A stretch of 64,000 bases of DNA. Origin: Malacoraja senta. Its lineage: Eukaryota. Where the stretch lies: contig CM075990.1 in NCBI GenBank assembly GCA_038087875.1, positions 7,938,001 through 8,002,000 on the forward strand, written 5' to 3'. The position numbers were made by a program, and so were the translations under genes. Positions 1,148-51,082 of this stretch are shown one piece after another (within the stretch, counting starts at the first letter, position 1; each line of letters starts with the position of its first letter). Under the pieces are notes generated by a model. The model ran no database searches, was not told the origin of the DNA, and saw only the letters and a list, made by a program, of their open reading frames with translations.

Positions 1148-1367
1148 TTTAAGAAGGAACTGCAGATGCTGGAAAATCGAAGGTAGACAAAAGTGCCGGA
1201 GAAACTCAGCGGGTGCAGCTGCATCTATGAAGCGAAGGAAATAGGCAACGTTTCGGGCCGAAACCCTTCTTCAGACTCAAGAAGGGTTTCGGCCCGAAAC
1301 GTTGCCTATTTCCTTCGCTCAATAGATGCTGCTGCACCCGCTGAGTTTCTCCAGCACTTTTGTCTAC
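1148..1367. mobile_element. Penelope-derived fold-back element with hammerhead motif
   Basis: Inverted arms centred at ~1276; flanking direct repeat tatctcaaaagca (1135-1147) / tatctaaaaagca (1368-1380). Confidence 0.8.
1244..1276 (-). ncRNA. Minimal type-I hammerhead ribozyme motif
   Basis: Minus strand gtCTGAAGAaGGGT-TTCG-GCCC-GAAACGTTgcc: CUGANGA core, stem II, GAAA, palindromic ACGU stem III, UH site. Confidence 0.7.
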
Positions 1368-1631
1368 TATCTAAAAAGCAGCCCCATGACTGATTCATGA
1401 GGCTTTATTTATTTGGATGATGATGGTAATTCTGATCTGGTTGACATCTGTTGCCTAATTGTGGGTTCCGGGCTTGATATTGGCCCTATCCTTGAAGTGT
1501 TGTCGTCTGTGCCACAGGATCCCTTCAGTGTATCGCTCAGATTTGATGTTGTTACCATAATGCTATTTGTATTGATTTTCTTTGGCGGGTTAATGCATTA
1601 GCTGATCGTGAAGAATTACTTTGTGTTGCTT

Positions 1632-1832
1632 TGTAGATTGGTTACTTACTAACCAATGTAGTGCTTTATTATTAGAAGCTCCGCCTATTACATTGTTCAT
1701 ATTATCGCAACCCAACTTGTGCTGGCAGACCATGCAGCTATACAGCAGAAGCAACATGCTGTAGTGTGTTATATGCGTTTTTCAATAAATACTGTTGTAC
1801 CATGTTCGTGAGTATGACTGGGTCATTCGACA
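1632..1832 (+). mobile_element. Solo LTR (Gypsy-like), 201 bp
   Basis: TGTAGA...TCGACA termini, exact 4-bp TSD GCTT (1628-1631 / 1833-1836), internal AATAAA at 1784. Confidence 0.7.
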
Positions 1833-3022
1833 GCTTCATCTTGTAGATTGCACACAATGCAGTCGCAGTTTTCTGGTTGAGGAAAGGATAGATGGAGTAC
1901 AGTAGTATTGAAACTGCGTGTTGTCATCAGGCCAGTTGAGTATGGCAGCCTATTCCTAATAAGTTATATGGTGGAATGGCTCGAAGATGTCTGCAGGTGA
2001 GCTGGATGTCAGGGTGCTCAGACTGCTTTTGTGCCTGAACAGGTTCAGTAACTGATCAGTAAACACCACAATTCACCTTTTCATATCAGGGTGCAATGTC
2101 TTTCGTCTTTCAATGCCTGGTACTTGGTATGTGATGATAGCAGTGAAAACTTGATTATGCAAAGTTCTAAACTTATTATCCTCCGTGGCATTATTAGAGA
2201 GACCTGAGAAGCTAGGCATGTTCAAGCTGAGAACATTAAATGGAGACATAATGGAATTGATCAAAATCATGAATGATTTTCAGTGAATAAGAAGAAACTG
2301 TTTTCCACAGTGCTAAAATGATTGACCACAGAGCACAGGATAAGCAACATAAGAATCAGCAGAGAGATGTTATAATATGGAATTCACTGCTTGAAAATAT
2401 GCTGGAAGTTTCAATATTAACATTGCAAAGGAAATTAGATAAATGTATGACAATGAAAAAATTGCAAGGGTGTGGGATAAGATCATAGAAATACAACTGA
2501 GTGGATAGCTCATTCAAAGTGCTGCCTGTGCTAACTACACTGGGTATCAACCTTCTCATTATTATTGTGTGTCAGGCATTTATTCTGAAGCTACAGTGCT
2601 TTGTGCAGTTTGTCGTTTCCTATTGGGGAAAGAAATGTGCAATTATCAAGAATGTCCTGGGTGTGTTGGTAGTCGGGTAATTCAGAGACAGAGTCGAGTG
2701 ATCTGGACACATAGGTTCATGCCACCACTGTTGCAGGCTCATTTAAATTCACCAAATTAAACCTTGGGTAAAAACTAGTCTCAATTTTTGAAACTAGAAA
2801 GCTGAGGTTATCTCAAACTTATTTACTTGAGTTCAAGTAAATAACTAATCGGTTAAGTAACTGTGCTGTTCTTTCATGGTCCAACCAAAATGCGATTCCA
2901 TTTCCTCAGCAAACCTCAGAAAACACTTAACTCACCAAGAGATCACCCTTCGGTGTAACGCCAGATTATACCCGTCATTTTCAAGAGCCATTTTATCACA
3001 ACCTGCCTGGGGACAATTAATG

Positions 3023-3557
3023 AAGGCACAAGAGAGTGCAGATGCTAGAAAAACAAAGTGCTGTTGCAACACAATGGGTCAGGCAGCATCTATGGAAGGA
3101 TGGAGTAGGGGGAGAAAGGCGAGGGGGTGGGGTGCAGCCTGGTAAAGATGCAGCTGAGGGGGGAGTGATTGGGAAATGGGTGGAGATGGTGACAAAGCCT
3201 AGAGGTGAAAAGGAGACGCAAGGTATTAGGTAAGGAGAGAAGAGGTGGAATGAAATGTGAAGCCAGAAAGAGGGATATAGTGGAAGGTAACGGAGGAGGT
3301 GAGCATAAATAGGGAAAAGGAGTAGGGTGGTTGAGGAAATGTGTGCGTCCAGGGGATAGAGGTGGTAATATTTGTGATTGGAAATTTCAGTGTTCATTCC
3401 ATTAGATTTTGGGCTACTCGAGCAGTATATAAAGAGCAGTTCTTCCAGTTTCTCCCCCTATTCCATCAGTCTGAAGAAGGGTCGTGACCAAAACATTGTC
3501 CATTCACTCCACAGGTGCTATCTGACCCGCTGAGTTCCTCGCCGCACTGTTTTTTGC
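3023..3557 (-). mobile_element. Degenerate 5'-truncated Penelope element with inverted terminal-repeat arm
   Basis: Minus strand near 3370-3452 reads KLEELLFIYCSSSPKSNGMNTEISNHK (decayed GIY-YIG C-terminus). It is followed by a + strand arm starting cagtCTGAAGAAGGG at ~3467. Confidence 0.65.
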
Positions 3558-5380
3558 TGTGGACAATTAGTGCTCATCTTGTTAGTTGCGTCCACATCTG
3601 GATGCCTGGTGTGAATCCTTTATATTTCTAGATGCAAATTTGTTGCAATATTTTCTGTTTCCTTCCCTCCTCCCTTCCTTTTCTTTGGCATGCCCATCTG
3701 TACACATTTGTTCAATTACCCTGGAGGAATGCTTCCAGTTTTTTCTGTGTGTAACGCTGGCTTCTATGGAAGTGAACAGTTTCAGTTCAGCTCAACAGCC
3801 ATGTGCAATGTGGAGTCATGGCCATTTGCTCAGTGGCCAGCTGTCAAGTATAGATACACCGATGAGCAACAGGCATGACAGTCACATTGTTAGCTTACCC
3901 TGCACTTTATTTCATTCTTGCAGAATTGTAGCAAACCTTATCTGCAAGTGCTTTATATTTAACAGGATGCATTCATTTGAGGACAGCTTGGTGTTAGCAC
4001 TGGTCAACATGTATCTGTGGATATCATTTATAATTCCCCTGGATCCAAGAATAACTATCTGCATATTTCGACTCCTGTGGTAGTAGAACTCTGATCTGAT
4101 ACCTGGTTACATGTACATAGGCCAGCAATCCCAAATTCTGCATCTGTGACTGAATTTTGATGAACCAAAGCTATACCAGTGCCAACCAAATAACACAAGA
4201 GAAAAGTGAAAGTTGTGGCTGCAAGCTGAATTTTGCAATAACCCAGTAAGTATAGTACTCAGGGCTTAACTCAAAACCTGAACTTCAATGTCCTCCATAT
4301 GTGGTATTGGCTTCTTTCAGGCTTACCACAACCGAAATGCCTCCGTCATCATTTAATTTCTAAATCATGGCTCCAGCCTTTAGATTTCGTGCATGCATTG
4401 ATATTTTCTTAACGTATGAAAGGTAAACGCTATTATATTGGTTAATGTTTTCCTACACTGGAGTGGCAGAGAATGCAGTGTTTGGAGTATCCAGGAATAG
4501 CCATACATTGTGGAAACTGCTCAGCTGCTGTGCTTGCCCTGTTACTCACTTGGTCTGGTACATACTAATTATGCCTTGGCACATCTTCCATTTCTCATTA
4601 CTCGATGGGTTATGAATGGTTTAAAGGGTAGTGACTGCGACAGAACCCAATGTTGCATTTCTTGTAATTGAAACGTGGCATTGACAAACATCTGTTGGTG
4701 TTTGTGAAAATCCAATTGCCTGCTCATTAACAAACCCAGAATGTGGCCAGCACATTTACTTTATGGCTCAACGCCTGTGGTTTTATAGGTTTTGATTCTT
4801 GACCATTCTTGATGTGTTTGCATCCTGTGACTGTGGGCAGATGGTTGCTGAAACAATTGGTCTTCAAGCTTGGCCTGGAGTCGGTGCATTTTCTGTATGT
4901 TGTGACATTGAAACTGGTGTCTGGATTACTTGGTGCTCTCTCCAGGTACGCAGGGCAAGGTGGTTCAGTTCATTGTTGCAATTAAGCTGTAGTGAACAAA
5001 TATCTTTCAATAATGCAAGGGTTAAGATTGCCAGGTTGGATAATCTATCTGGCTCAAGGTCTGCTTGAAATAAATATATTTAAAGAGTGGACACAAATAC
5101 TTAAACTATTTAATCAGCTCATTAATCGGAGGAACTTAATTGAAAATATTTTGTGTAATGGAATGAAAAGTGAGTTGACTTTGCACCACACGTTTGCTTG
5201 TCTTTGGTATTTTGTCAATTGACAAAATTGTCAGATTTGTGGTATGTCAGGTTTAAATTTTGGCTTTTAAAGTTTTCAAAAAGCATAAATCTGATGTAAG
5301 GAGCAAATGAAAAGGGTGCTAAGTGTGATTCTGAACACACTGAGTTCCTGGGGGGTTTTCTGGCCTTCCATGGGTTCGTA

Positions 5381-11249: not shown

Positions 11250-11682
11250 AGAGGGAACTCACTTGGGATGCCTGAAGTCACAGGTCAGACTGGGAAGGGA
11301 CAGGAAACTTTCTCCACCAACAGCCATCAGTGAATCAGATCGTGTTTTTACCAGAATCTGGTAGCTTCATGATTAGAATTAGTGGCCCCAACATTGGTTT
11401 AAACGTTTCAGATTTATTTAATTACTTAAATTTAAAATCCCGACCGCCATGTTAAATTTAAAGTCCTCACCTGCCTGTCTGGACCAGTGCTCATGAGGAT
11501 AGAGGCTGAAGAAGGGTCTCGACCCGAAACGTCACCCATTCCTTCTCTTCAGAGATGCTGCCTGACCCGCTGAGTTACTCCAGCATTTTGTGTCTATCTT
11601 TGGTTTAAACCAGAATTGCAGTTCCTTCCTACACACTCAATGCTCAGGAGGTCTGGCTTCTGGCCGATAACCTACCCTCTAC
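11250..11682 (-). mobile_element. Old SacSINE1/DeuSINE-like SINE interrupted by a Penelope terminal repeat
   Basis: Minus strand catgaagctaccagattctggtaaaaacacgatctgattcactgatgg...gtgacttcag resembles the shark Deu-domain SINE as I recall it; head fragment at ~11640-11682. Confidence 0.55.
11506..11634 (+). mobile_element. Single Penelope terminal repeat beginning with a hammerhead core
   Basis: CTGAAGAAGGGTCTCGACCCGAAACGTCacc...agatgctgcctgacccgctgagttactccagcattttgtgtc...gcagttccttcctacac. Confidence 0.8.
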
Positions 11683-11802
11683 ATTTCTGTGGGTATCCAA
11701 CGATGTCTCGCTTATTATTGATGCCATTTATTTGAGAAGTAAACATTGCTCATTTTTCAGTTTGTTCAACTATTCATTACATTGTTCTTTTGTCTTTTTT
11801 AG

Positions 11803-11918: not shown

Positions 11919-12734
11919 GTAAGAAAATGACATTATTTCCAGCCCAGCTTCTCTCCTAACATGATAAATAGAATTGTATTTACCAGCTCAATGCCTCTTT
12001 CAATGTGAATATAATCAACTTCTTTGAACCGGATAATCGGTTGCCTCTGTGGCATACATTTCGCTCTGTGTGAAGACCAGCAGCACCAGTGCTTTGCATT
12101 GATCTCTAAGGAACATAACATGGCAGATTGGACACCTGATAGTGATTTAGTCAGTTGAGGTATTGTGCTGATTTGAGTTATTAGATAACGTGAAGGCAGG
12201 TCCGATGAAGGGTCTCAACCTGAAATGTCCCCTTTTCCTTCTCTCCAGAAATGCTGCCTGTCCCACTGAGTTACTCCAGCTTTTTGTGTCTCTTCGGTAC
12301 TGATTCTGGATGATCAGCCATGATCATATTAAATGGTGGTGCTGGCTCAAAGGGCCAAATGGCCTACTCCTTCACCAATTTTCTATGTTTCTCTATGGTA
12401 GGCAAGTTAACTATTATTCAGCTACCCACTACACCCTTTAACATGAGAATCACTGATTTTTCTGGCATGCTTTCTGCTCATCGTCTTCACTGAGCCAGCC
12501 TAGTGATAAAGGTGCACAGTGGTATAATTCAGCTAAGGCCACGGTGTGTAACTAATGTGTAATTAGTTGGTGTCTATTAAGAATTACAACCAAGATTTGT
12601 TTGTTTAGCCTGGTGATGTATAATCTCTCAATAATGCTCAATTTAAATGTGTGAACAAAAGATCTCCAGCCAATATAAGTTAAAGATTCCAAGCCCTAAC
12701 TATTAAGAACACATTTTTCCTTGTTTTTGTGATG

Positions 12735-16296: not shown

Positions 16297-17507
16297 GTGG
16301 GTGTCTGTTATATAAAGATTTCTCTAAGTATGCCATTTGATGAAGTACAATGTGACTTTTTCCATATTATGCAAGTGTGGATATGAATAAGCCAGGATCA
16401 CTTATCCTGATCAGGACTTAAGACAATCAATACTGTCCCTGTCAAGTAATTTGTCTTGCCTTTCCTGTACAGGTGAAATGTACCTGCTGGCATGATCTGC
16501 AGCCCTGTACTGCTTTCTCCAACTTATTCCCCACTGACCAAGGGTCTTGGTTACAAGAGGAGAAAAAGGAAAGAGGTTCACCTGGAGTATAAACAACATC
16601 GTTGATCCAAATGATCTAATTTACAAGCTGTATTTTCTATATTATGCTCTTTTGGGTTATGCAAGGTTGGTTTAGTTCATATCTGTACATGACCAGCTTT
16701 CTAGATTTGCTGATTAAAAACGTGAAGGAAGTGTCGACATTTTGTTCACAGAAATCAGTAAGCTTGGATCTGTCAGCCCAGGATCTATGCTCCATATTTG
16801 CAGATTAATAAACCGCATTTCATCTCATCCTGTAGTATAGGGTCTCAATTCTGTTGCTTCTAATTGCTTCTTGTATTGAATCTCTTCAGTTAACCTTATA
16901 GAGATGGTCTGGAGCACAATAGTCAACTTAATGGCAGGAACTATCTGACTATAGTTACTATACACTCGCGTTAGATTTACAACACATCAGATACTTTTCA
17001 AATGCAGTGAGTTTTTTCTCAGCCACTCTTTCAGGCCTGTGGAACTGTTCTGCAAACAGCTTTCCAGTCACCAAAATATCTTTCAGCCTCTGCTTCCTGC
17101 CATCTGATGATGATTGCGTTCAATCCCTTGAATCAGACTGTTTAGCGTAGCCTTGCTAAAATCCATGTTGACTGCTTTGTCCCCTGACTGATTAGCCCCT
17201 CAAAAAATAATTATGTTGACTTTCCAAAATTAAGGAATGGTGAGTATCTTTAGATTTCATTTTAACTTGCTTTTTTAAATTGAATTTCAGCGTTTTGAAA
17301 ACTGATAATTATTTGCTATTCCTTTGTGTCGGAACTCGAGCTGTTACATTGAAGTGCACCAAATTTTCCTAGGTTGTTATCTGCATCTGTGTGATAAGTT
17401 GGCATGTTATACGCTCGTAATGAGCCACTGACTCATCTTTAATCAACTTTTGCTTCATACATTTTGGTTGGTTGACTAAAGTTTGATTAATTATTTTGCT
17501 CTTCCAG

Positions 17508-17715
17508 TTGTTTCTGCAGCGGCAACGAGCTGCCCGACTGGCAGAGACTGAGACTGATGATTTCATCAAAGACACACCAACACCACCTCAGGATCAGAGT
17601 GGCCAGTGGCAGGAGACTGCCGGGTCATTGGAATGGGTGCAATCAGAAAATTGCACCAAGAATGATAATGAAAAGAAGAAGGAGGAGGAGGATGAAGAGA
17701 TCGACTTGAATAAAG
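17508..17715 (+). CDS. WAPL: WAPL coding exon
   Basis: ttccag|TTG ... AAAG|gtatga; 208 nt; LFLQRQRAARLAETETDDFIKD...KKKEEEDEEIDLNK. Confidence 0.96.
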
Positions 17716-18463
17716 GTATGAAAGAGGCATTTCACCAAACAGATGCCTTATCAAAGTGTGACCTCTTCCTCTTCCACAATATTGTTTTTTTTAGAATTGT
17801 TTCATGTTTCAAATACTTGTTTGCTATAACTCATTAATTGGATTAGGGCACGGGTGCGCACATGATATTGTCAAAGCATCTTCACAAAGGTTTATAATTG
17901 TTAGCACATTTTTGCTTGCCGTTTGTTCAGAATTTATTTCAGTGTTACATTTGTGGAAGGAACACGTCAGTCTTTACTAATGGTGGCCATGAATCACCTT
18001 CGCTAACTGGCAGTTATTGTGATGCTGCGCTCCAGTATATTTCTGTGAGGTTAGAAGGCTTTATTAAGTTGTTATACGAGATGCAACACGCAAAACAAAA
18101 ATCAGCAGGTTTTTGGGGGTTCTTTGGGTTGGCTCTAATTTCACAATTTCATCCTGTTTATCCCAGTGATTGTACTCCACTGCATATGGGTTTTGCCATG
18201 TTTGTCTTGCGAATAACACACAGCAACTTTATAAAAAGTTTGCAAACTTCAAAGTGCTACTTTTTCAAGGATGTGCAACTCGCTTGCCCTCTTTTAAATG
18301 GATGTATACGACCTATAAAAGCCCACTGGACCCCTTTCCAGCTGTGGCTGCTTTCCGACCTCTTCCCGCTGCGGTTATTAGAGCCATTTTTTGCTGAGTC
18401 GTCTAATCAGCAGTTGGTTAACAACGCAGTGTGATAGACGTGTAACAGTGAGGTGGAAACTAA

Positions 18464-18927: not shown

Positions 18928-19034
18928 TAAGTCCAATTTTTGCCAGTTTAAACTGCATCAAGCAGAAGAGGGTTTGAACGCCACCTTTTTTCATGCTCAT
19001 TCCACGTAAGCCTGACCAGGGGCTCTGCATCTGA

Positions 19035-19290
19035 GGGAACTGCAGATGCTGGTTTAAAGCGAAGATAGACACAAAATGCTGGAGTAACTCAGCAGGACGG
19101 GCAGCATCTCTGTAGAGAAGGAATGGATGACGTTTCGAGTCGAGACCCTTCTTCAGACTGATTGTTTCAGGTCGAGACCCTTCTTCAGACTGATCTGTTT
19201 GAAGAAGGGTCTAGACCCGAAACGTCACCCATCTCCAGAGATGCTGCCTGTCCCGCTGAGTTACTCCAGCATTTTGTGTCTATCTTCGGC
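19035..19290. mobile_element. Penelope-derived fold-back element with three hammerhead-like copies
   Basis: Inverted arms; two tandem minus-strand motifs (~19128-19158, ~19164-19190) and one + strand motif (19199-19229, C3->T). Confidence 0.75.
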
Positions 19291-20714
19291 TCTATCTGAA
19301 GCAGGCTGAGGTAGAGTTGCAGAATGTGGGAAATGTCTTGGGAGTGTAGAACAATGTGAACTATAATGATGAAATCTGGAGTAAAAAAGCAATCTGCTGG
19401 AGGAAGTTAGCAAGTCAGGCAGCATCTGTGGAGATTTGAGGTCAGGACCCTTCTTCAGACTGGATAATAATTTGTTTCTCAGATGCCTCAAACTCAAATT
19501 TGTACATTGCTGTTGAGAATTGAATCTGGCGATTCATGACAGAAACCTACAGCCAGCGGTTTTATTTATTTATGCTGCAGTTGTCAGATCCTCATTAAGT
19601 CCATGTCCAAACTGAATTGCTATGTTTTTTCAAGCATAACCGAAAGAATCCAGTCCTCCTTGATTTCTTCCTCACATCTACCTCCAAATATGAATAACTT
19701 GCACAAACACAGATTCTGACTTTTAACTGAAACTCTCAGTTTAACATTTTATTCTAATGAGATCAGATGCATGAGGCATTTTCTGCTTATTTTTGTTTTT
19801 TGTGATGAACTCTGCTTTCTGCAGTGGTGGCCATTCAGGGCAAGTGTTCATTGAACAAAGGTGCTTCTGTCTGTCGTTAATAGTGTAAATGCCCTTTCTC
19901 TGTTCTCTTGAGCTGTAATTTCTGACCCAGACACAAGATGCCATTCCTCTCTCATAATTTTGAAGTATTTGATAGAATTAAATATTTTCAGTAAAATAAG
20001 ACAAAATATCTGTCAGTCTGCAGGTTTTCAAAGTATTATTTAGCCGATAAGATGTAATGTATTTATCAAAACTGACTAAAGTGCTAGAGAGTGCACTGCT
20101 CAATTTTGACTGGGAGAATCTGACTGAATTAAGAATATTTTTTTTTGTTCTGTATCACGGCGGGGAGTTGGAAAAGAACAACGAGTAATCCTTCATTGTA
20201 CATCAATATAATCGGGGTAACCGGGGAGCTGGCGTAAGAGTTCCTAAACAAAAGACAACCCGAGTCCAGATATTTAATTATGCTTGATGCAGATAATCCT
20301 GACCAGTAACATCAGCATATGATAGGGAGTCTGGTGATATAGAATGGAAAGAGAAGCCCTTTAATCCCATGCCAACTGACCAACATCCATTTCTACACGA
20401 ATCCTATCATAATCCAATGTATCTTCCCGCATTCCCATCAACTCCTTCCCCACCAAGCTCCTTGCACCCCCAACCCCAGGCTGATTAACACACTCGGAGG
20501 ACAAGTTAGTGGCCAATTAACCTACCAGGCCTAGCTCTTTTGAGATGTGGGAGGAAATAGGAGCATCTAGTTTAAAATATCCCTGAAATTGAAATCAGTA
20601 TCCCAAACCTCCTTTCCTTTTCTACCTATCTTTCATACCTGGTCCTGTCCTCAGCCCCACCCCACTCCTCTGTCCCAATGCCCTGTTGCCAGTGATTTGT
20701 GTTTTCTTTTGCAG

Positions 20715-31970: not shown

Positions 31971-32545
31971 TCTGTAAGTCGTTTCCTTGCATTTGTGCCC
32001 AGTTAATCGTGCACCCTTTAAATATGTTGATGTACCTGTTGAATATAAAGCCCTGATCACAGCAGCTTCATTCAGGAATACAATACACAGTTATATCTAG
32101 GGTGTAAATGCTGCCTATCATCAGCAAACCACATGCATCCAAGTGGATGTTCCATCAACTTCCTTCCAATATCCCCATCGTCAATGAACCCAGTCTTGCC
32201 AATTTGCTTCACCACATATTTTATCAAGAAACGGCAAAGAGTAATGGATTCCGCAAAGGCTCTGGAATCGGATACCATTTTGGCACTCGGTTCTGAAGAG
32301 TTTCTACAAACCACCTATACCTCTGAGCCATCCAGTGCAGCAAAACTCACCCCTGCCTAAAGCTACCTCAGTATTTTCTTCACAAATCCACTCACACTAG
32401 TTACCACCTCATCAATCTAGAAGTCATCATCAGCAAAGTGTTGGAAGTTTTCAGCAACAGTGCTGTAAAGTATCACTGATAACATCCTCACCAGTGGGTT
32501 TGGAGTTATCCAAGGCCATTTGGTTCCATACCTCCATGAAGTCTT

Positions 32546-32736
32546 TAAGAAGGAACTGCAGATGCTGGAAAATCGAAGGTACACAAAAATGCTGGAGAAA
32601 CTCAGCGGGTGCAGCAGCATCTATGAAGCGAAGGAAATAGGCAACGTCTGAAGAAGGGTTTAGGCCCGAAACGTTGCCTATTTCCTTTGCTCCATAGGTG
32701 CTACTGCACCCGCTGAATTTCTCCAGCATTTTTGTG
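32546..32736. mobile_element. Penelope-derived fold-back element
   Basis: Inverted arms centred at ~32646; perfect 17-bp direct repeat tacctccatgaagtctt at 32529-32545 and 32737-32753. Confidence 0.85.
32646..32678 (+). ncRNA. Minimal hammerhead ribozyme motif
   Basis: gtCTGAAGAaGGGT-TTAG-GCCC-GAAACGTTgcc. Confidence 0.68.
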
Positions 32737-33542
32737 TACCTCCATGAAGTCTTGATACAAACAGGCAAAAGAGCTAAATTCTGGATAGGTGAATGACTAT
32801 CCTTAATATCAGGTAACATCTGTCTAATGTGGTGAATGTAAAACTGATCTTGGTGAGAATTGAGGGGGTGCTTTGCATTGACGGGTCATGACACGTAACG
32901 ATTCTCATGTTTGGAGCTCCACCATCTCTGAGTCACTCTGCATGGAAACGGGCCTGAGTCAGCCATGCCAATCTCAACCCCATTGCAGGAGCTCCAAAGC
33001 GCAGTTGCCTGAACCTAACTGAGCTGCAGCAGCTGCACCATGTCTCCAACCAAAGGCAAGACTTTTGCTGATCACAGTTCCTCAGCAACTAGAGCAGCCC
33101 ACACATCTCTGCAGGAAGATCATATTCAGACTGGTAAGTGAAAAGTTAATGCTAGATGATGACTAAATCCATATGGAGTTTTCAGCCTTCAACATCCTGA
33201 ATATCCCCAGGTCATGCATAACTCTCTCCCTGAACATATAAGCTATCCAGATTGCATAATCAAAAGATGATGGTATATTGTCCATTTGCCCGAGTGCATA
33301 CATCTCTATTAATACAAGAACCGTGACACCAACCAACACCAAGTAGCTGCTACATTTTTGCCCTGTAATTTAATTTGTGGTTGTGTGTGCAGGCAATAGG
33401 TAGGGCCAGTTTCTGCTGCATCTACATGGTGATGAATACGCTCAATCCATTGTGCTCAAACCAGTCCTGTGCACAACGGATTCAAGAAAAAAAATCTTTA
33501 TCTGAAAAAATCCCAAATAATATGATTGGAAACAGCAAATCA

Positions 33543-33574: not shown

Positions 33575-33656
33575 ACCTGTAACCAAGAGTTTACAACAAA
33601 AAAATTATTGTTTTTCTCCTCACACTGCAGAGTTATTTGAGTATTTTCTTATTGTT

Positions 33657-33807
33657 CAAGAAGGAACTGCAGATGCTGGAAAATAGAAGCTAGACAAGAC
33701 AAGTCTTCAGTCTGAAGAAGGGTTTCGGCCCGAAACGTTGCCTATTTCCTTTGCTCCATAGATGCTGCCGCACCCGCTGAGTTTCTCCAGCATTTTTGTC
33801 TACCTGA
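33657..33807. mobile_element. Penelope-derived fold-back element with intact hammerhead motif (33710-33742)
   Basis: TSD tattttcttattgtt (33642-33656) / tatgttcttattgtt (33808-33822); gtCTGAAGAaGGGT-TTCG-GCCC-GAAACGTTgcc. Confidence 0.8.
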
Positions 33808-35159: not shown

Positions 35160-36789
35160 ATAAAGAGATCGTTTCTTTCTACCCTCAGTCTGTTCCGGGG
35201 TGTGGTGTCATTATTCTATGTCACGCCAGAATCTAGCTCCAACGGCAAGAAACTAAGCTGTTAAAATTAACACCCAATTCTTGATCTGATAATCTAGTTC
35301 CAATGGTTTGATGCGTTTTGATTATGTGCATTTGTTGAGAGTTTTCTCCCTTCCTCTCCAAATGTTGAACCCGTTATAATTGTGTTTAGTTTCAGGGCAG
35401 CTCCCTCGGCTGTGTGTCGGTATCGTTTCCTGCATTGTGTGGGGACGGCAGAGAGAGAGAGAGAGAGCCCTAACGCCCATAATGAGTGTGGACTGCAGCT
35501 GTGAGCTTATCTTTCAAGGCTAGTCCTTACGTGGAGGCACAAGAGGCTGCTGGAGATGGAATATGAAGTTAAAAAACGAAGTACTGGAGGAACTCAGCGG
35601 GTTAGGTCAAACAACATATGTGGAGCAAAATGCACAGATGATGTTTTGAGCCGGGACCCTTCAGGCAGAGAATTTAGTACCAACAATGTTCAATTTCTTG
35701 TTTTAATACAAAGCACTGGCCTGAGACGTCCTCTATCGATTTTCCTCAACAGATGCTGCCTGACCCGCTGAGATTCTCCAGCACCGTGTCCGGGTCTTAC
35801 ATTGTCTGTTTTAATACAAGAAGGACCTAGCCTGAAATGCCGCCTGTCCATCTCCCTGCACAGATGCTGCCTGACCCGCTGAGATCCATCAGCACTGTGT
35901 TTTTCACTTGCCTGCTGGGTCTGCGGGAAGCAGGAATAAATCCACAGGGAACAAGTCAGGAGACACAAGGCACTGCAGATGCGAGGAGCAAGAAAAAAAC
36001 ACAGTGTTGGAGCAATTCAGGAGTACGCCCAGCATGTTCTGCCTGTAGTTATAGAGCAGAGAAAAATAGGTGCAGGAGCAGGCCATTCGGCCCTTCGAGC
36101 CAGCACCGCCATTCAATATGATCATAGCTGATCGTCTAAAATCAGTAACCCGTTCCTGCTTTCTCCCCATATCCCTTGATTCTTTTAGCCCTCAGAGCTA
36201 AATCTAACTATCTTGAAAGTATCCAGTGAATTGGCCTCCACAGACGCCTGTGGCAGAGAATTCCACAGATTCACGATTCTCTAGGTGAAGTTTTTCCCCA
36301 TCGTGGTTTCTGCAGACTAGGAAGGATTTAGAGGTTGGTCCTAAGTCACAGATGACCAAAGCTGCTGCCCAGCCCCACCCCCCACCCCCAAGCCCTCACT
36401 CTCTGGGTTATTGCTGACCAAGCAAATTGGCGGCTGATTTCAAAAAGTGGACCGTCAATGGTTCATGTCAGGACCCTTCTATTGAACAAGAAATTGGATG
36501 ATTTTTACGACCAAATTCTCCGTCTTAAGAAGGGACCCGCCGCAAAATATTGTCTGCGGAAATAAGGAACTGCAGATACTGGTTTATTTAAAAAAGTGTT
36601 TGAGTAACTCAGCAGGTCAGGAAGTATCTCTTGAGGGCATGGATAAGCAGTGTTTCAGGTCGCAACCCTTCGTCAGTCTGACCATTTCCCTCCACAGATG
36701 CCGCCTGACCTGCTGAGTTCCTCAAGCACTTAAAAAAAAAAAAATCCAGATTCCAGCATTCTCCGTCGCTTGTGTCTCCATGTTACTGT

Positions 36790-37517: not shown

Positions 37518-37885
37518 AATGTCGTGAAAGAGCACATGAATATTCTCTATTCTACACTTGCTCCTATACACTATATATATATATGCCTGACACATGCGTA
37601 TGTAATTGCCACCGATGTGACACCACACTGCTGAAATCTATCCGGACCACAGTAATAATTCATTGCCGCTGCTCAGATTAGATTGCAGTTCTGTATTGTG
37701 AGGAGTGGTGCAGGGAATGGGCTCGCTGTTTGCAGGATCTGGGTGATTTGAGGGGCACAACTCAATGTGTTTGTGTAAGAAGGAACTGCAGATGCTGATT
37801 TACATCAAAGATAGACACAAAGTGCAGAAAAGGAGTAGATGCCGTTTCGGGTCTGAAGAAGGGTCTTGACCCAAAATCACCAACT

Positions 37886-39413
37886 AGAGAGGAAATTGCG
37901 GGAGCCCTGGTTACAATTTACGAGTCGTCCTTAAATACAGGAGAGGTGCCGGAAGACTGGAGGGTGGCAAATGTTGTGCCTCTTTTCAAGAAGGGCTGCG
38001 GGAAAAATGTTGGGAACTATAGGCTGGTGGGTTTAACATCTGTAGTTGGTAAGTTACTGGAGAGTATTCTGAGGGATAGGTTATACAGGCATTTGGATGG
38101 GCAAGGGCTGATTAGGGACAGTCAGCATGGTTTTGTACATGGGAGGTCGTGCCTCTCAAATCTGATTGATTTTTTTGAAGACGTGACCAAAAAGGTTGAT
38201 GAGGGCAGATCTGTAGGTGTTGTGTACATGGATTTCAGTAAGGCGTTCGACAAGGTGCCGCATGGTCGGCTGCTCTGGAAGGTTAGATCGCATGGGATCC
38301 AAGGAGAGATAGCTGAATGGATAGCAAATTGGCTCCATGGAAGGAAGCAGAGGGTGATGGTGGAAGGTTGCTTCTCAGACTGGAGGCCTGTGACTAGTGG
38401 TGTGCCTCAGAGTTCGGTGCTGGGCCTGTTACTGTTTGTCATCTACATCAATGATCTGGATGAGAACATACAGGGCAAGATTAGCAAGTTTGCTGATGAT
38501 ACAAAAGTTAGTGATTTTGCAGATAGTGAAGATGGTTGTGAAAGATTGCAGCAGGGTCTGGATCAATTGGCCAGGTGGGCGGAGGAATGGTTGATGGAAT
38601 TTAATACAGAAAAGTGTGAGGTGTTGCATTTTGGGACGTAAAACAAGGGCAGGACCTACAGTAAATGGGAACCCTCTGGGTAGTGTTGTAGAGCAGAGGG
38701 ATCGAGGAATACAGGTGCATGGTTCCTTGAAGGTTGAGTCGCAGGTATATCAGGTGGTCAAAAAGGCTTTTGGCTCTTTGGCCTTCATCAGTCAGAGTAT
38801 TGAGTATAGAAGTTGGGAGGTCATGTTGCAGTTGTATAAGACGTTGGTGAGACCGCATTTAGATTATTGTGTTCAGTTCTGGGCACCGTGTTATAGGAAA
38901 GATATTGTCAAGCTTGAAAGGAAAGATATTGTCAAGCTTGAAAGAAAAGATTTATGAGGATGTTGCCAGGACTAGAGGGTGTGAGCTATAGGGAGAGGTT
39001 GAGTTGGCTGGATCTCTATTCCATGGAGCACAGGAGGATGAGGGGTGATCTTATAGAGGTGTATAAAATCATGAGAGGAATAGATCGGGTGGATGCCCTT
39101 TTGCCCAGAGTTGGGGAATCGAGGACCAGAGGACATTGGTTCAAGGTGAAGGGGAAAAGATTTAATAGGATTCCGAGGGGTAACTTTTTCACACAAAGGG
39201 TGGTGGGTGTATGGAACAAGCTGCCAGAGGAGGTAGTTGAGGCTGGGACTATCCCATTGTTTAAGAAACAATTAGACAGGTACATGGACAGGACAGGTTT
39301 GGAGGGATATGGTCCAAGTGCAGGTAAGTGGGACTAGTGTAGCTGGGACGTTGTTGGCAGGTGTGGGCGAGTTGGGCCGAAGGGCCTGTTTCCACACTGT
39401 ATCACTATGACTC
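37886..39413 (+). mobile_element. 5'-truncated CR1 LINE with reverse transcriptase domain (disrupted)
   Basis: ORF 37946-38641 contains PEDWRVANVVPLFKKG, YMDFSKAFDKVPH, SGVPQSSVLG, YINDL and KFADD. Continues through frameshifts in ORFs 38616-38957 and 38954-39337; CR1 tail gggccgaagggcctgtttcc. Confidence 0.95.
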
Positions 39414-41029: not shown

Positions 41030-41284
41030 GGAGCGGATGGAGAGAGAGGGAAAGCAAGGGCTACCTGAAGCTCTCCATCCTCTCCCTCTTCCCAGTTCTC
41101 CGACCAGGCATACTGTCTCCGACCAGGCATACTCTCTGTACCACCCCGACATCAGTCTGAAGAAGGGTCTCGACCCGAAACGTCACCTATTCCTTCTCTC
41201 GAGATGCTGCCTGTCCCGCTGAGTTACACCAGCATTTTGTGTCTATCTTCGATTTAAACCAGCATTTGCGGTCCTTTCCTACAC
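41030..41284 (+). mobile_element. Penelope 3' region and terminal repeat with intact hammerhead motif (41155-41187)
   Basis: catcagtCTGAAGAAGGGTCTCGACCCGAAACGTCacc; preceded by a short inverted piece of the Penelope 3' UTR also seen at 41975-42020. Confidence 0.75.
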
Positions 41285-41689
41285 AATGAGATATCAGATT
41301 CCACATTTGATGATCCAACTTTAATTCTTCAACACTTTGGCCGTTGATGAGTAAATGGTTGTTTCCATAATGATAGGCTGTGGTTTGACCAACCTTAACA
41401 AATACAGTTTTCAAATTCTACACTTAAACATTCCTCAATCACTTCTAGGAAAAAACACATCAAAATTTAAAAGGTTAGGCTTGAATAATATTTGGTGAAA
41501 ATGGCTGCTGTTTATTTCATTGGCTGGTGTGTCTGAAAACAGTTTGGGACTATGTTACCCAATCTTTACTTAACATGACAACCTTAACCCAAATGGTTAA
41601 AATATAGAATCAAAAGATGCTAAAAATCAGAAATGTGCCCTGTCAGAGAGGTGAGATGAGATTCCTATTGTCTGCCATTTTAATTCTCC

Positions 41690-42169
41690 AAGATAGACAC
41701 AAAATGCTGGGGTAACTCAGCGGGACAGGCAGCATCTCTGGAGAGAAGGCATAGGTGACGTTTCGGGTCGAGACCCTTCTTCAGACTGATGTCAGGGGAG
41801 GTGGAGGTATATAGATAAGGAAGTGTAGATATAAGGAAGTGTAAGGTGGGATAACAGTACAAAGGGAAAGGAGATCAAGGAGCGTGTAGAATAGATCATT
41901 GTTAGTTGGGAGAAAGTAACAACAAAGCAAACAGATATAATGTCGTCGGAGACAGTAAGACTGATCGGAGAACTGGGAAGGAGGAGGGGATGGAGAGAGA
42001 GGGAAAGCAAAGGTTACTTGAAGTTCGAGAAGTCAATGTTCATACTGCTGGTGTGTAAGCTACCCAAGCGAAATGTGAGGTGCTGTTCCTCCAATTTGCG
42101 CTGGGCCTCATTCTGACAATGGGGGAGGCCCAGGACAGAACGATCAGTGTGGGAATGAGAGGGGGAGTT
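41690..42169 (-). mobile_element. 5'-truncated Penelope-like element: GIY-YIG C-terminus, 3' UTR and hammerhead-bearing terminal repeat
   Basis: 42169-42014 reads NSPSHSHTDRSVLGLPHCQNEAQRKLEEQHLTFRLGSLHTSSMNIDFSNFK* (Penelope endonuclease tail); intact hammerhead motif at 41754-41786 on the same strand. Confidence 0.88.
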
Positions 42170-43000: not shown

Positions 43001-43084
43001 CATTAAGAAACAACTCTCCCTCCTCCCCCCTCCATCACCACAGTCCATCCCCCCCACTTATACTAACTCAGTCATCCCGCTAGA

Positions 43085-43320
43085 TGTGGAAACAAAACAA
43101 CAGCAGATGCTGGTTCACCAAGGATAGACATAAAACGCAGGAGTAACTCAGCACGCCAGGCAGCATCGCTGGAGAACATGGATGGGTGACCTTTCGGGTA
43201 GGTCCTGACCTGAAACATCAATCCATGGTCCCCAGGGATGGGTGACAGAAGAAAGGTCTCGACCCGCAACGTCACCTGTTGCACCTCCAGAGATGCTGCC
43301 TGACCCGCTGAGTAGTTCCC
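43085..43320. mobile_element. Penelope-derived fold-back element (degenerate)
   Basis: Inverted terminal-repeat arms with decayed hammerhead-like centre (ggtctcgacccgcaacgtcacc). Confidence 0.6.
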
Positions 43321-44588
43321 GAATTAAGATCATCTAAGCCTCTGAGCGGGACTGGTAACTTCATTTGTTTTGTCAGTAATGCCGGGGCAGACAGGGGAAG
43401 GGGAGGAGGTTGTGGAGCTGAATCTTGAGCCAACCCAGACCCAGCAGTGACTGATACTGCAATCATCATGGTGACACAGGAAGGAAGCTCCACCAGAAAC
43501 TGCCTCCTACTGTTTGCAAAAAGACACAAAGAGCTGGAGCTGGACCTTCTCTCCAGCTTTTTGTCACTCCAGCTTTTTGTGTCTATCTTCTGTTTAAATC
43601 AGTATCTGCAGTTCCTGCCTACACATTTCTATTTGCACAGGGTGAGTGAGGTCTAAAGCCACGTGACTGCGCCATTTTCCAGCTCAACTATTGACAGGGT
43701 GGCTGTAAAACCCGTCCTCAAGCCGGCAATTTGATGTGCAAACATGGGGCACATTTCTGCAGCAATCCCTCTGTGTCGCCCACCTGTGCCAAGACACCCG
43801 GTGGGCGCTAGGACCCTGCAACGCCAAGAAACGCCTCAAACACCATCTGCTGGCTGAAGACGGAATTGGCCAGAAATGCCATTTAACCCTTTCGCAGAAC
43901 AGAGCTTTACATCCACACACACACCTTAAGTTGCTGTCTTCAAAAGTAATATCACATCAAACTGAGATTAAATATGTAAATAGCTTAGTTTCAAGTAGTT
44001 AGAATCTGATTGCCTTCAGAAGTAGTACACAGTGACAAATTGCAAGCTTCACAACTGACTCTGGGCACACAAAGTGATTAGGTCAATAAAATAAAATACA
44101 TGTTTCTACTGACTGGTCTTAGATTGAAAGCTACGATTTTCAGAAGGGATTGGAAAAAGTGCAGAAAGTGCTAAAGCTCCATGGTTAATTGATATTTCGA
44201 TACAAAGAACTGATTTACAACAAAAAAAGACACAGTGCTGGAGTAACTCAGCAGGTCAGGCAGCATCTCTGGAGAACATGGATAGGTGACGCTTTGGGTT
44301 TGGGTCAGTCTGAAGATGGTTCCAATCTGAAACATCACCTTTTCATGTTCCCCAGACAAGCCCAGCCTATCCAATATCTCCCCATAACTAAAGTTCTCCC
44401 ATCCAGGTAACTAATGTTTTATTCTTAATGTTGTCATGTTTTATGTTTTATTCTTAGTTGTTTACTGTATGTTGTGCTGTTACTAGTGAGCGGAGCACCA
44501 AGGCAAATTCCTTGTATGTGTGCATACTTGGCCAATAAACTTACTCATTCATCGCATTATCTCTCACTCTCTTCCTCTGTCACACATA

Positions 44589-45215
44589 ACAAGAGGAGTC
44601 GAGTACAGGAGCAAAGAGGTCCTTCTGCAGTTGTACAGGGCCCTAGTGAGACCACACCTGGAGTATTGTGTGCAGTTTTGGTCCCCTAATTTGAGGAAGG
44701 ACATTCTTGCTATTGAGGGAGCCCAGCGTAGGTTTACAAGGTTAATTCCCGGGATGGCGGGACTGTCATATGCTGAGAGAATGGAGCAGCTGGGCTTGTG
44801 CACTCTGGAGTTTAGAAGGACAAGAGGGGATCTTAATGAAACATATAAGATTGTTAAGGGCTTGGACATGCTAGAGGCAGGAAACATGTTCCCGATGTTG
44901 GGGGAGTCCAGAACCAGGGACCACAGTTTAAGAATAAGGGGTAAGCCATTTAGAACGGAGACGAGGAAACACTTTTCTCACAGAGAGTGGTGAGTCTGTG
45001 GAATTCTCTGCCTCAGAGGGCGGTGGAGGCTGGTTCTCTGGATACTTTTAAGAGAGAGCTAGATAGGGCTCTTAAAGATAGCGGAGTCAGGGGATATGGG
45101 GAGAAGGCAGGAACGGGGTACTGATTGGGGATGATCAGCCATGATCACATTGAATGGCGGTGCTAGCTCGAAGGGCAGAATGGCCTACTGCACCTATTGT
45201 CTATTGTCTATTGTC
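44589..45215 (+). mobile_element. CR1 LINE 3' fragment (young-looking)
   Basis: RGVEYRSKEVLLQLYRALVRPHLEYCVQFWSPNLRKDILAIEGAQRRFTRLIPGM...; ends in a (ctattgt)3 tandem tail. Confidence 0.92.
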
Positions 45216-46515
45216 ACATCATGTCACATTGGTCTCCTCTGCACCCTCTCCAGTGCAATCACACCTTTCATATAGTGTTGCTACCAGAACTGCACACTAT
45301 ACTCAAAGCGCGCTCTAACCAGTGTTTGGCAAAGTTGCAACATAATGGTTGAACATTTATATATTCTGGGCCTGAACCCATGAAGGTACGCGTGCCATTT
45401 GCTTTTTCACCACCCTACCCATCTTGGATAGATAGGTCTGTCTGTTCTTAAACATTCCCGCGTCATAGAGTGATACAGTGTGGAAACAGGCCGAACTTGC
45501 CCACATCGGCCAATGTCCCTATTGTTTTCTCTATATATCCTATCCCTACTTTGATTTTGCAATATGCGTCACTTTGCACTTGTCAGAATTAAATTCCATC
45601 TACCAATGCTCTGCCTGACCTTCCATCTGACCTTTATCCCACCTTGCACAACGTACCTTGCAGTCCACTGCACCACCAAGTTCGGTGTCATCCGCAAACA
45701 TGTGACTCATTTATTTGGAGTTTTCAATCACCTTCACGCTTTTAGTCTGCAGAAGGGTCCTGACCCGAAACGTCGTCAAGCCATGTTCTCCGGAGATGCT
45801 GCCTGACCTGTTGAGTTACTCCAGCACTTTGTGTCCTTTCATGCTTTCAGAGTAACGGCTCAGGTCAATGATGTCACCCGGGATCTACAGGACTAAGTCT
45901 GGTCAGATGCTTCAGGGGTGTTTGTTTATGTAAATCCTCTGTCCGGTTCCATCCCTCATTGCGGCCAAGTGTTTTCACTCAATGACTTAATGACCAAGGT
46001 CAGCCCTGTGTGAAGGTATTGTGCAGTGGTGCAAAAGTGGGTCTGTTTTGGTATTTTATTGCTCAGAATGGGTCCTTTCACTATTTAGACCACGCATTAA
46101 CTCAAACCACACTCGTGAGGAACTGACAGAGAACAAGCAGGAAGTCAGATGTGCGTAGCGTGAATGTGAGCATCTTCCGTGTCCACATGTGAGGAGATCT
46201 CAGTTTCATAAGTAGAAGGTATGTTTCATGTGTTTGGAAATCTACATCATGTGTGTGTACACGCATGTGGTCACGGATTAGCCTGTAGTCCTGTCTGTGA
46301 ACTAATTCATAGGAAATCCTCTGGTGTTATATTAAAATCGCATGCCTGCACACACAGTTGTCACACTTTGCTACACATGCAAAGCAGCTTAACATGGATA
46401 TGAGCCTTTGGTTATGAGCCTTTGGTGAGTGCAGCAGGCCAGAAATGCCACCAATTCACTTTGGCTGGATCAACATTGCGGTGATGCAGGCAATATAGTG
46501 TCCTCTAAGAACTTA

Positions 46516-48199: not shown

Positions 48200-48433
48200 A
48201 GGGGTTATGTTCTCCCCGTGACTGCGAGGGTTTTCTTCGAGATCTTTGATTTCCTCCCACACTCCAAAAACGTACTGGTTTGTAGGTTAATTATCTGGTA
48301 TAAGTGTAAATTGTAAATTGTCCCTGATGAGTGTGTAGGATAGTGTTAATGTGTGGGGATCACTGGATGGTGCGGACTCGGTGGGCCGAAGGGCCTGTTT
48401 CCGTGCTGTATCTCTAAACTAAACTAAACTAAA
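48200..48433 (+). mobile_element. V-SINE/HE1-like SINE (5'-truncated)
   Basis: V-domain, CR1-like tail and (taaac)n end. Confidence 0.75.
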
Positions 48434-49649
48434 CATAAGGCACAGAAACATGCCCTTCAGACAATCATGGCCATGTCACTAACCTCACTGCACTAACGGC
48501 AATAGCTCTGTGGCCTACTATGCTTTGGTTCTATTCACCAAAGTAGCTATATAGATGCTTTGTAAATGTGGAGCAGTATCTGCCTCCACCACCTCTTCAG
48601 GCAACACATTCCCAGCTCCAACCACCTTTGAGGTACAGATGTCCGTCCTCACCCCACCCCCCAATCTCTCCTAAACTTCCTACCTCTTAAACCCATGCCC
48701 TCTGGACAGATACCTCCTCCATGGTATAGAGATTTTGCCATCTAATCCACCCACCTCTGCAATGTGCACGTCCTCCCTGTGACCGTGTGGGTTTCCTCCA
48801 GCTGCGAGGGTTTCCTCCCACATCCCAAAGATGTGTGGGTTTGTAGGTTTAATGGCCTCTATAAATAGCTCCTGGTGGGTAGTGAGTGGGTGAGATAGTG
48901 GGATGGCACAGAATTAGTGGCAACATCTCTATACCATTAGTGTGAATGGGTGATCGATGGTCAGCCTGGTGGGCCGAAGGGCCTGTTTCCATGCTGAATC
49001 TCTTATCTAAACTAAATAAACTAATCTAGAGGTGGGTTGTTACGTCTCTGGTCTATTGGAAGCTCTCCAGCAAATCCCATGGTCTCCCAGTAGATCCAGG
49101 ATCTGCTCCTGCCGATGTCTGCTGGTTGTACAATCCTCCTTGTTATTCTACTCCATCCTTTAGACATTTTCCAGTGAGATACGTGCTCCACGAACACCTC
49201 ATTAAAATTCCTCATCACACCCCCTGCCGATTCAATAACGCCAATAGTTTTAATTAATGTGTCCTCTCCAAGCCCAGGAAGAAATCGAACATTCCTACTC
49301 CCGAGAACCAATGGGCCAATTGCTGATGATCAGTTGTCACACCTGTCGGACTGCAAACGGTTTTGTCCGACATTGCGAGCCACTTGGTAGCAAGTTCCTG
49401 AAACGTTCTGTGGAGATCGCCGTGCGGTGATGGATCCAAAGTCACTAACAGCTCTAATTACTGCCTCCACCCACAAATCTGTTCACCGAATCAAGGGACA
49501 AAACTAAAACACTAAACCAAGAGCAGCACAGACTCGAGATCTGAGTTTTAAGAAGAAAAAAAAAGCTGGAAAGACTAAGCAAGTCTTGCAGCATCCATGG
49601 AGAGGAGGAGAGTTAACAGGCCAGTGTCTGAATCTGCACAGAATGGATG

Positions 49650-50085
49650 CAGCCCCTTGAGCCCAACTTGCCCAGGTCAACCAAGATGCTCCATCTACAC
49701 TAATCCCACATTTAGCCCACATCCCTCTAAACCTTTCCTATCCATGTTCCTCTCCAAATGTATTTAAAATGTATTATAGCACCTTGCTTCAACTACCTCC
49801 TCTGGCAGCTCGTTCCATATGCCCACCCCCCTCTGTGTGGAAAAAGCTGTCTATTAAATGTTCCTATTAAATATTTCCCCTCTCACCTTCAACCTCTGGC
49901 CTCTAGTTCTTGATTCCCCAACTCAGGGTGAATGCACAGAGTCTTGTACCCGATCTGTTGCACTCATGATTTTAGACACGTCTGTAAGATCAAACCTCCC
50001 CCAGCCTCTTGTGCTCCAAGGAAGAAAGTCCTCGCCTGCCCAGCCTCTCCCTGCAGCTCAGGCTCTCAAGTCCCAGCAAACATCT
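49650..50085 (-). mobile_element. CR1 LINE 3' fragment
   Basis: Reverse complement of the CR1 3' region at 38970-39400. Confidence 0.75.
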
Positions 50086-50154
50086 CGCATTTACAATGAG
50101 AGCGCTTGACTGCACCACTCACTGTTGATCCCCACTCCCTGCTGGTACCTCTAA

Positions 50155-50463
50155 AGCCCCTGTCCCACTTTCCCGAATTACTCATGAATTCTCCCGAGTT
50201 TTCCCCTTGATTCAAACTCGGAGATGCCAGCCGTAGGTACTCGGGGCTATTTTTTTTACTCGTGGACATTTTTTATCAGGTTGAAAAAACGTCCCTACTT
50301 ACCTGTTGCCCCGAGAACCTACGGCTGGCATAACGAGCCGCTATGAATATATCCACAGACTCCGACGGCCTCCTACAGCCTCGCTACGGACATTCTCCGA
50401 GTTTGAATCAAGGGGAAATCTCGGGAGAATTCGTGAGTGACTCGGGAAAGTGGGACAGGGGCT
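50155..50463. mobile_element. Harbinger-type MITE with ~70-bp inverted termini (309 bp)
   Basis: TAA|agcccctgtcccactttcccga...ttcaaactcggaga / tctccgagtttgaa...tcgggaaagtgggacaggggct|TAA. Confidence 0.9.
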
Positions 50464-50878
50464 TAAGGAGCCACAACTGTATCCAGACCTGGCTTCAATT
50501 CTGCTCACAGTCTGTACAAATGCATATAATTGTAGGGTAGATCAATCATGCATTTATACCCACAGTTTTAGAAGAAAATTAGTGTTTAATCAATTCAGTT
50601 TAAATGAGTTTTTAATCAATTCTAATTCATATTGGAAATCTTCACAGGTTCATCAGATAGGAGCAGAATGAGGCCATTCGGCCCTACTCCGCCATCCAAT
50701 CATGGCTAATCTATCCTTCTCTCTTAACCCCCATTCCCCTGCCTTCTCCCCATAACTCCCGACAAATCTTAAACTGCCTTCAAATATACTTTTGGTGCAG
50801 TTTTATTACATTCCTTGGACTTTCTCTGCTCTGTTCTGTCGTGAAGTTTTGAAGCTAGTCTTTATTTTTATTTATGTT

Positions 50879-51082
50879 TAAGAAGGAACTGCAGATGCTG
50901 GAAAATCGAAGGTAGACAAAAATGCTGGAGAAACTCAGCGGGTGCGGCAGCATCTATAGAGCGAAGGAAATAGGCAACGTTTCGGGTCGTCTGAAGAAGG
51001 GTTTCGACCCGAAACGTTGCCTACTTCCTTCACTCCATAGATGCTGCCGCACCCGCTGAGTTTCTCCAGCATTTTTGTCTAC
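50879..51082. mobile_element. Penelope-derived fold-back element with intact hammerhead motif (50989-51021)
   Basis: Near-perfect inverted arms; flanks ctttatttttatttatgtt / ctttatttttattttgtt; gtCTGAAGAaGGGT-TTCG-ACCC-GAAACGTTgcc. Confidence 0.85.

Follow-up and report, generated by a model that had tools for sequence, protein, structure and literature searches.

Dispersed minimal hammerhead motifs of Malacoraja senta as probable short insertions of an endonuclease-bearing Penelope-like element

Minimal type I hammerhead motifs in the pseudo-long terminal repeats (pLTRs) of metazoan Penelope-like elements (PLEs) have been described by Cervera and de la Pena (2014, PMC4209133). A family of such motifs is considered here that is dispersed over a window of 64,000 nucleotides (the whole stretch analysed, positions 7,938,001 to 8,002,000 of contig CM075990.1 of Malacoraja senta). 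As far as the accessible text of that paper describes them, the published motifs share with the present family the CUGANGA-H core with an extra nucleotide, the G10.1-C11.1 pair, a loop-less C-G palindrome in helix III, a U-rich upstream tract and an occurrence mostly as single dispersed copies from truncated elements. The present family has a helix II of 4 bp and a helix I of 2 bp, the short end of the published range (helix I of 2-6 bp, 2-bp cases included). Its copy number is ~57,000 exact matches, compared with ~4,000 in coelacanth and ~9,000 in Xenopus. Shark, Callorhinchus, Leucoraja and Squalus have no entry in the searchable text of the supplement. The preferred reading, held at a probability of about 0.8, is that these are minimal type I hammerheads in the pLTR of an endonuclease-bearing PLE and that the dispersed copies would be short insertions made by the element's enzyme from uncut RNA, likely inactive.

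PAc, a Poseidon element of the green anole (Frangieh et al. 2024, PMC11167929), is similar in several respects. According to the available part of that paper, its hammerhead is located at the junction of the pLTR and the open reading frame (ORF), reverse transcription starts in vitro at two internal sites that define an optional tail, uncut RNA is apparently the main substrate, and the hammerhead is silent alone but cuts with the assistance of its protein. The M. senta element resembles PAc in the place of the hammerhead, in the two tail sites and in the apparent use of uncut RNA as substrate, here from sequence alone. Unlike PAc, it has a Neptune-type zinc-finger linker, and the first AUG of its long frame is 136 nt behind the cut, whereas that of PAc is inside the hammerhead. 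Insertions of endonuclease-bearing PLEs, in the parts accessible of two papers (PMC3846280, PMC8557442), include partial tandems, head-to-head inverted copies, a tail at one end (an optional tail of 30-40 bp is known) and duplications of 9-17 bp, and the inversions have been explained by self-priming on an antisense template (PMC3846280). The same forms occur here, but the arms are mostly minimal (95-135 bp) and the combination of one long and one short arm has been counted (62/75). Animal non-LTR (long terminal repeat) retrozymes (PMC7229834) also carry type I hammerheads related to those of PLE pLTRs, and the available part of a preprint reports them in one chondrichthyan genome (bioRxiv 10.64898/2026.07.22.740005). 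Retrozymes are tandem arrays of non-coding units, whereas the motifs described here are dispersed truncated ends of a coding element. The dispersed copies do not fit a retrozyme identity; the window has no tandem arrays of 150-400-nt hammerhead units and only short local duplications.

Positions in the motif are given relative to the cut, nucleotide 17 being 0 and C3 being -27. The order of the hammerhead core is correct (CUGANGA, GAAA and the UH cleavage triplet). Within-copy variation was taken from 322 copies, those among 549 tail-anchored ones in which the motif can still be aligned. Helix II consists of 4 bp and a tetraloop and is closed by G10.1-C11.1, which is G-C in 234/322 copies and G-U in 38/322. 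Helix III is the palindrome ACGU and has no loop, therefore the hammerhead requires a dimer, which can be drawn and evaluated. The extra nucleotide pointed out between A9 and G10.1 matches the published consensus in the accessible text of PMC4209133. The seven copies that a first-pass annotation of the window had called intact are all in place with core, stem II, ACGU palindrome and a 2-bp stem I, and its predicted cut after 41184 is correctly placed. Where it had listed decayed copies, a damaged or truncated motif is present, but two of these had been misjudged. The copy at 11506 retains the core and stems II and III and lacks only the 5' strand of stem I, and the supposed copy at 1276 belongs, as a second arm truncated at its 5' end (from 1279), to the insertion that also contains the motif at 1244-1276. 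The core and stems II and III are intact in 8 window copies. Remnants absent from the earlier list were found at 19164-19193(-), 19364-19462(-), 36563-36681(-) and 58088-58206(-).

A descriptor of the core plus stem II gave 10 matches in the window, versus a mean of 0.18 and a maximum of 2 in 100 first-order Markov resamples. The motif forms the front of a repeat of ~95-135 bp, and nhmmer found 45 pieces of this repeat in the window. A general hammerhead descriptor applied to all fetched DNA gave 153 matches, all of which belong to the present sequence family or to variants of it; a second family from which covariation might be drawn was therefore not available. An Rfam scan of the window returned no hammerhead family among the 20 matches listed at E<=10; the microRNA-like matches in the window are inverted pairs of the repeat.

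The motif had been assigned to Penelope terminal repeats, and an ORF upstream of it, both in the genome and in the window, bears this out. The longer copies, 20 of which were retrieved, have the order reverse transcriptase (RT), zinc-finger linker, GIY-YIG endonuclease, stop codon, pyrimidine spacer, hammerhead and tail, with the motif 78-235 nt 3' of the stop codon of the RT/zinc-finger/GIY-YIG frame. This ORF is directly upstream of the motif in L003, L025 and other loci, and inside the window the end of the endonuclease (42169-42020) and then a 230-nt spacer stand upstream of the hammerhead with C3 at 41784(-). A genome search with the frame gave 114 scored matches among 115,451 candidates, and all 114 are stop-free with 99-100% identity. 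The open frames of L061 and L062 encode 1,224 and 1,222 amino acids. The L061 frame matches RVT_1 (E 6.5e-6) and GIY-YIG (E 1.5e-3) in Pfam, both below curated cut-offs, and has the motifs DKG, YIDD and YIGET as well as CX4CXXC at residues 1091-1099. The parent is a young family (99% identical, open frames) of endonuclease-bearing PLE. A CX2-5CxxC linker between the RT and a C-terminal endonuclease has been described for Neptune and is shared with Nematis, according to the accessible part of PMC8557442. Because the zinc-finger linker occurs together with a C-terminal endonuclease, the element fits Neptune (or Nematis), and membership of the Neptune clade is likely.

Among 120 protein relatives listed, the highest-identity sequences that carry a name come from rays and sharks (63-74%). 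Two ray proteins, P0013 and P0078, named as kinase-domain/chitinase-domain isoforms, contain 60-72% of the element's RT-endonuclease region and appear to be exonised or mis-annotated Penelope copies. L073 has two head-to-tail units with hammerheads 3,891 nt apart, a 3.9-kb tandem unit bounded by the hammerhead. A 387-bp direct repeat surrounds the frame in L066, and L062 has a 2,037-bp perfect inverted copy. Residues ~150-490 of the L061 frame, in the N-terminal half of the protein, form a long proline/serine-rich, internally repeated region. A 41-codon upstream frame in L073 (2613-2738, +23 after the cut) starts in the tail, with its AUG in a conserved part, and runs in another reading frame across the first AUG of the long frame (+136).

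The window copies are insertions of 95-135 bp that have target-site duplications and frequently form head-to-head pairs of a long-tailed and a short-tailed arm. The upstream reach and the distributions of ends rest on 107 sampled copies, in which the 3' ends lie at ~+66 or ~+101 from the cut. The 81 head-to-head pairs consist of 66 long+short, 11 short+short, 2 long+long and 2 unclassified; when 4 redundant rows are dropped, long+short is found in 62/75 classified pairs versus 49% expected. An exact flanking duplication of at least 8 nt is present in 39/81 pairs. Each head-to-head pair is one insertion, because three window pairs carry flanking duplications of 13-17 bp. Pair 1141-1367 is flanked by 13 bp (1135-1147 and 1368-1380, 12/13 alike), pair 32546-32740 by 13 bp (32533-32545 and 32741-32753) and pair 50879-51083 by ~17 bp (50861-50878 and 51084-51100). 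Helix II together with the GAAA core is nearly palindromic in the young subfamily (L073 2573-2587; in the window, inverted junctions such as 1250-1302). Of the inverted arms at risk, 22/36 end at -14 to -24, and the two complementary DNAs (cDNAs) may therefore anneal at this near-palindrome. At L122 and L126 (G000:C1, ~3.87-4.03 Mb) one stub has been amplified passively inside a host tandem repeat with a period of ~2-2.5 kb.

The exact 28-place motif pattern occurs 57,420 times in the genome of 1.94 Gb, compared with 0 times for the reversed pattern used as a control; a piece of 35 nt from the tail of the young subfamily is matched exactly 31,418 times. Unselected DNA totalling 540 kb (14 stretches next to the window and 40 spaced elsewhere) contains 156 tail copies; a hammerhead is recognisable in 95 of them, and in 17 the core and helices II and III are intact. 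Scaled to the genome, these numbers become ~560,000, ~340,000 and ~61,000, respectively. Core residue G12 is changed in 61/322 copies (55 by G-to-A at CpG) and the loop G in 48/322. Single dispersed copies decay neutrally, with core positions changing as fast as loop positions. A very large ribozyme load had been expected from the window, and the high number stands. However, with a stem I of 2 bp, a disfavoured active fold and neutral decay of the copies, the motifs appear to be mostly 5'-truncated passengers and not a load of working ribozymes.

A different picture is seen between lineages. Among 10 hand-picked lineage representatives the mean identity is 0.85 for the hammerhead, 0.75 for the tail, 0.76 for the ORF end and 0.46 for the spacer, which varies in length from 73 to 230 nt. 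The common variants of the 322 copies are the first loop base, U-A/U-G closing helix II, C17/U17 and U-A/U-G of helix I. All common lineage-level variants are one-sided changes at tolerated positions that keep the pairing. The first-pass statement that variation falls in the loop or preserves pairing is correct at this level but fails within copies, where G12 is changed. The core-versus-loop comparison that it proposed likewise supports the hammerhead between lineages only. Because the hammerhead is kept between lineages and decays within copies, selection would be acting on the master elements and not on the stubs.

The doubt already expressed about monomer activity is supported by the 2-bp stem I and the disfavoured active fold. 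A longer helix I formed via bulges or distal pairing was searched for and not found, and none of the minimum-energy folds of 6 pieces is a hammerhead. The predicted probability of forming helix II is ~0.6 in the older subfamily and 0.02-0.04 in the young one. Published minimal hammerheads cut poorly even as dimers, according to the accessible text of PMC4209133; dimer cleavage of PLE hammerheads is attributed to Lunse et al. in the available part of a review (PMC6765202). By analogy with the anole element, protein-assisted cleavage in the master RNA would be the likeliest activity. The dispersed copies are likely inactive as ribozymes.

The 5' ends of the stubs bear on the state of the template. 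Among non-inverted young copies, 28/53 at risk start within 9 nt (-25 to -33) at the front edge of the hammerhead, where 1.8 would be expected from flanking intervals, and only 2/64 have the cut site as their 5' end (0.9 expected). The 32 short copies, from all subfamilies, with a target-site duplication of at least 9 nt start at -27 to -33, later starts being excluded since these copies were found via the core. Because the ends pile up at the front edge and not at the cut, the template would have been mostly uncut, with copying stopping just past the hammerhead; the stubs are likely copies of uncut RNA. The bases at the front edge read TCAGTC, with A at -30, 2-3 nt before the core, and we take this sequence to be initiator-like. 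G precedes 26/50 starts at -29/-30 versus ~29% expected, and 10/51 other starts, an excess as a copied cap would give. The element is also present in contigs of four organisms (three of them possibly RNA-derived, by a guess), where loose ends coincide with the boundaries seen here. One joint skips 115 nt from the ORF end to the hammerhead; it comes from a guessed-RNA run and a run of unknown kind, with unknown letters between. No clear GT..AG joint is present among the joints listed from these contigs.

It is proposed that the element's protein would nick both DNA strands ~13 nt apart and that reverse transcription would be primed at two tail sites, on the model of the anole element in vitro. 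One or both cDNAs would then be joined in, resulting in single or head-to-head copies. Priming at both tail sites from two staggered nicks would explain the excess of long+short arms, and we infer that such twin priming fits the counts. Transcription would start at TCAGTC, and priming at the tail nearest the RNA 5' end would give run-off copies of 95-135 nt. The whole hammerhead would be carried so often because the stubs would be run-off copies from the RNA start. The chances that run-off explains the 5' ends of the stubs are about even. The fuller proposal is more tentative and falls a little short of even: stubs would be run-off ('strong-stop') copies of the first 95-135 nt of a capped messenger RNA, two tail sites would prime from staggered nicks, and the cut would remove a 31-nt capped leader. 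If this fuller proposal is true, tens of thousands of genomic copies would show where transcription starts, where both primings occur and how rarely cleavage takes place in vivo for a young vertebrate PLE family with intact frames. In the master element, selection would maintain the hammerhead, and cleavage would require both a dimer and the help of the element's protein.

A number of points weigh against the preferred reading and its details. Helix I has only 2 bp and its third pair is A-C in 193/322 copies. No two-sided compensatory change in the helices was found among the 322 copies, a family too uniform for many to be expected, so the segment could have been selected as a promoter or a protein-binding site instead of for catalysis. 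The active dimer is calculated at -6 to -7 kcal/mol, compared with -11 to -14 kcal/mol for two free monomers and -21 to -25 kcal/mol for the best dimer, and is therefore disfavoured in a calculation that ignores tertiary contacts. The young set consists of 65 non-inverted copies, most of which lie within the first 5.8 Mb of a single contig; the far ends of five young copies carry no information, since these were used as references too, and the sorting into inverted and single copies is imperfect. The 5' ends are spread over ~10 nt and do not fall on one base. The cap-like G becomes weak in a cleaned set, where it ends 10/22 extra-base junctions (p 0.049), at least 2 of which come from local duplication, and only 1 of the 4 single-base extras is G. 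In D. virilis Penelope, as far as the accessible texts go, the start site is well upstream, 46 nt before an intron (PMC2377424), and the intron ends at hammerhead helix I (PMC4209133).

The arrangement in D. virilis also lends weight to a possible, though less probable, account of the 5' ends, in which the pile-up marks an RT stall, either at a pyrimidine-tract foot where splicing or poly-C proteins sit on a YAG resembling a 3' splice site, or after the hammerhead has been unwound. Some endonuclease-bearing PLEs have a spliceosomal intron in the pLTR. An acceptor-like CAG stands directly before the core, behind the pyrimidine tract, in 111/121 long copies, and a stall is consistent with the spread of the ends. 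Against a stall stand the excess of G before starts at -29/-30 and not before other starts, and the single G that precedes position -30 in 3 of the 12 joints listed; in addition, no convincing intronless genomic copy was found among 295 (5 loose matches). It is quite improbable that the short copies are a separate non-autonomous family, similar to short interspersed elements (SINEs) or retrozymes, that has its own short master and uses its hammerhead. Short copies do outnumber long ones (174/295 are without the upstream tract) and the 32 mentioned above have duplications of their own, but both variants of the first base after the cut are found in short and long copies, starts and junction bases vary copy by copy, and the window lacks tandem arrays of hammerhead units.

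The two remaining alternatives concern catalysis. The hammerhead may be a dead relic that is kept in the masters only as a promoter or protein-binding site. The 2-bp stem I, a stem II that forms in just 2-4% of the young subfamily's ensemble, the lack of two-sided covariation and the few copies that start at the cut would agree with this. Such a relic is nevertheless considered unlikely, as all lineage-level changes fall on tolerated positions with pairing kept, the accessible part of PMC11167929 describes an anole hammerhead that is also silent alone and cuts with protein, and PLE motifs with a 2-bp helix I exist in the accessible text of PMC4209133. At the other extreme, the dispersed copies could be active throughout the genome and load host transcripts with self-cleaving sites, given that ~60,000 have an intact core and stems (57,420 exact matches; 17 in 540 kb). 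This is highly improbable, as the core decays as fast as the loop in the copies, the active fold is disfavoured and depends on another copy lying in the same orientation, and pairs are most commonly head-to-head, a form that would base-pair into a long hairpin. The features of the family in the window are collected in Table 1.

Table 1. Copies of the repeat and remains of the parent element in the window
Feature	Position	Strand	Remarks
Long-tail arm of head-to-head insertion	1141..1278	-	Intact hammerhead, C3 1274, cut after 1247; start = G+AGU
Short-tail partner arm	1279..1367	+	5'-truncated inside core
Decayed copy	3466..3550	+	
Long-tail copy	11502..11637	+	Core, stems II/III intact, C3 11506; stem I 5' strand missing
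Decayed copy	12200..12295	+	Core broken
Long-tail arm	19027..19193	-	Intact hammerhead, C3 19156; local duplicate of its 5' half at 19164-19193
Short-tail partner arm	19196..19298	+	Core 5'-truncated
Long-tail arm	32546..32649	-	Start few nt before cut site; no core
Short-tail arm	32646..32740	+	Intact hammerhead, C3 32648
Short-tail copy	33649..33805	+	Intact hammerhead, C3 33712; inverted long-tail fragment 33649-33696 in front
Decayed inverted pair	36563..36731	-	Not in earlier list
Decayed inverted pair, internal deletion	37771..37882	+	Listed earlier as 37851
Long-tail copy	41152..41289	+	Intact hammerhead, C3 41157, cut after 41184; pyrimidine-rich spacer upstream
Short-tail copy	41690..41789	-	Intact hammerhead, C3 41784, cut after 41757
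Pyrimidine-rich spacer, stop codon to hammerhead	41790..42019	-	230 nt
Last 50 codons of the element's GIY-YIG endonuclease region	42020..42169	-	64% identical to young family, E 4e-13
Decayed inverted pair	43098..43325		Listed earlier as 43250
Decayed inverted pair	44210..44361		Listed earlier as 44308
Copy with broken core	45742..45840	+	A6 changed
Long-tail arm	50879..50989	-	Start inside stem II
Short-tail arm	50989..51083	+	Intact hammerhead, C3 50991

Other features are also present in the window. Broken fragments of long interspersed elements, which we take to be CR1-like, occur at 37799-39337 (+) and 44490-44993 (+), and 37802-38638 matches RVT_1 at E 3.5e-31. Another short repeat family (D8, D13, D14, D17), presumably SINE-like, is densely clustered at 48200-57900, and a GC-rich minisatellite with ~4.8 copies of a 38-bp unit is located at 60607-60796. 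The region 17487-17837 (+) is a possible host exon with an acidic stretch and no Pfam match at cut-off; 6 further frames of the window likewise had no match at a curated Pfam cut-off. The strand bias of the intact copies becomes testable if the window is intronic.

The pairing of a minimal hammerhead with a Penelope pLTR, the inverted structures and the tail are already published, and what is new is the scale and the testable detail. No paper on this family in cartilaginous fish was found, although subscription papers, Repbase/Dfam entries and preprint supplements may list it, and the accessible literature gave no paper on strong-stop or run-off copies or twin priming in PLEs. The role of the hammerhead in PLEs is an open question in the field, as the accessible parts of PMC8557442 and PMC11167929 present it. 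The young family, with its intact frames, holds a very large natural record of insertion ends that argues for RNA being copied uncut. This record allows a direct test of the transcription start and of how head-to-head copies are formed. Counts of hammerhead motifs in such genomes would overstate the number of working ribozymes.

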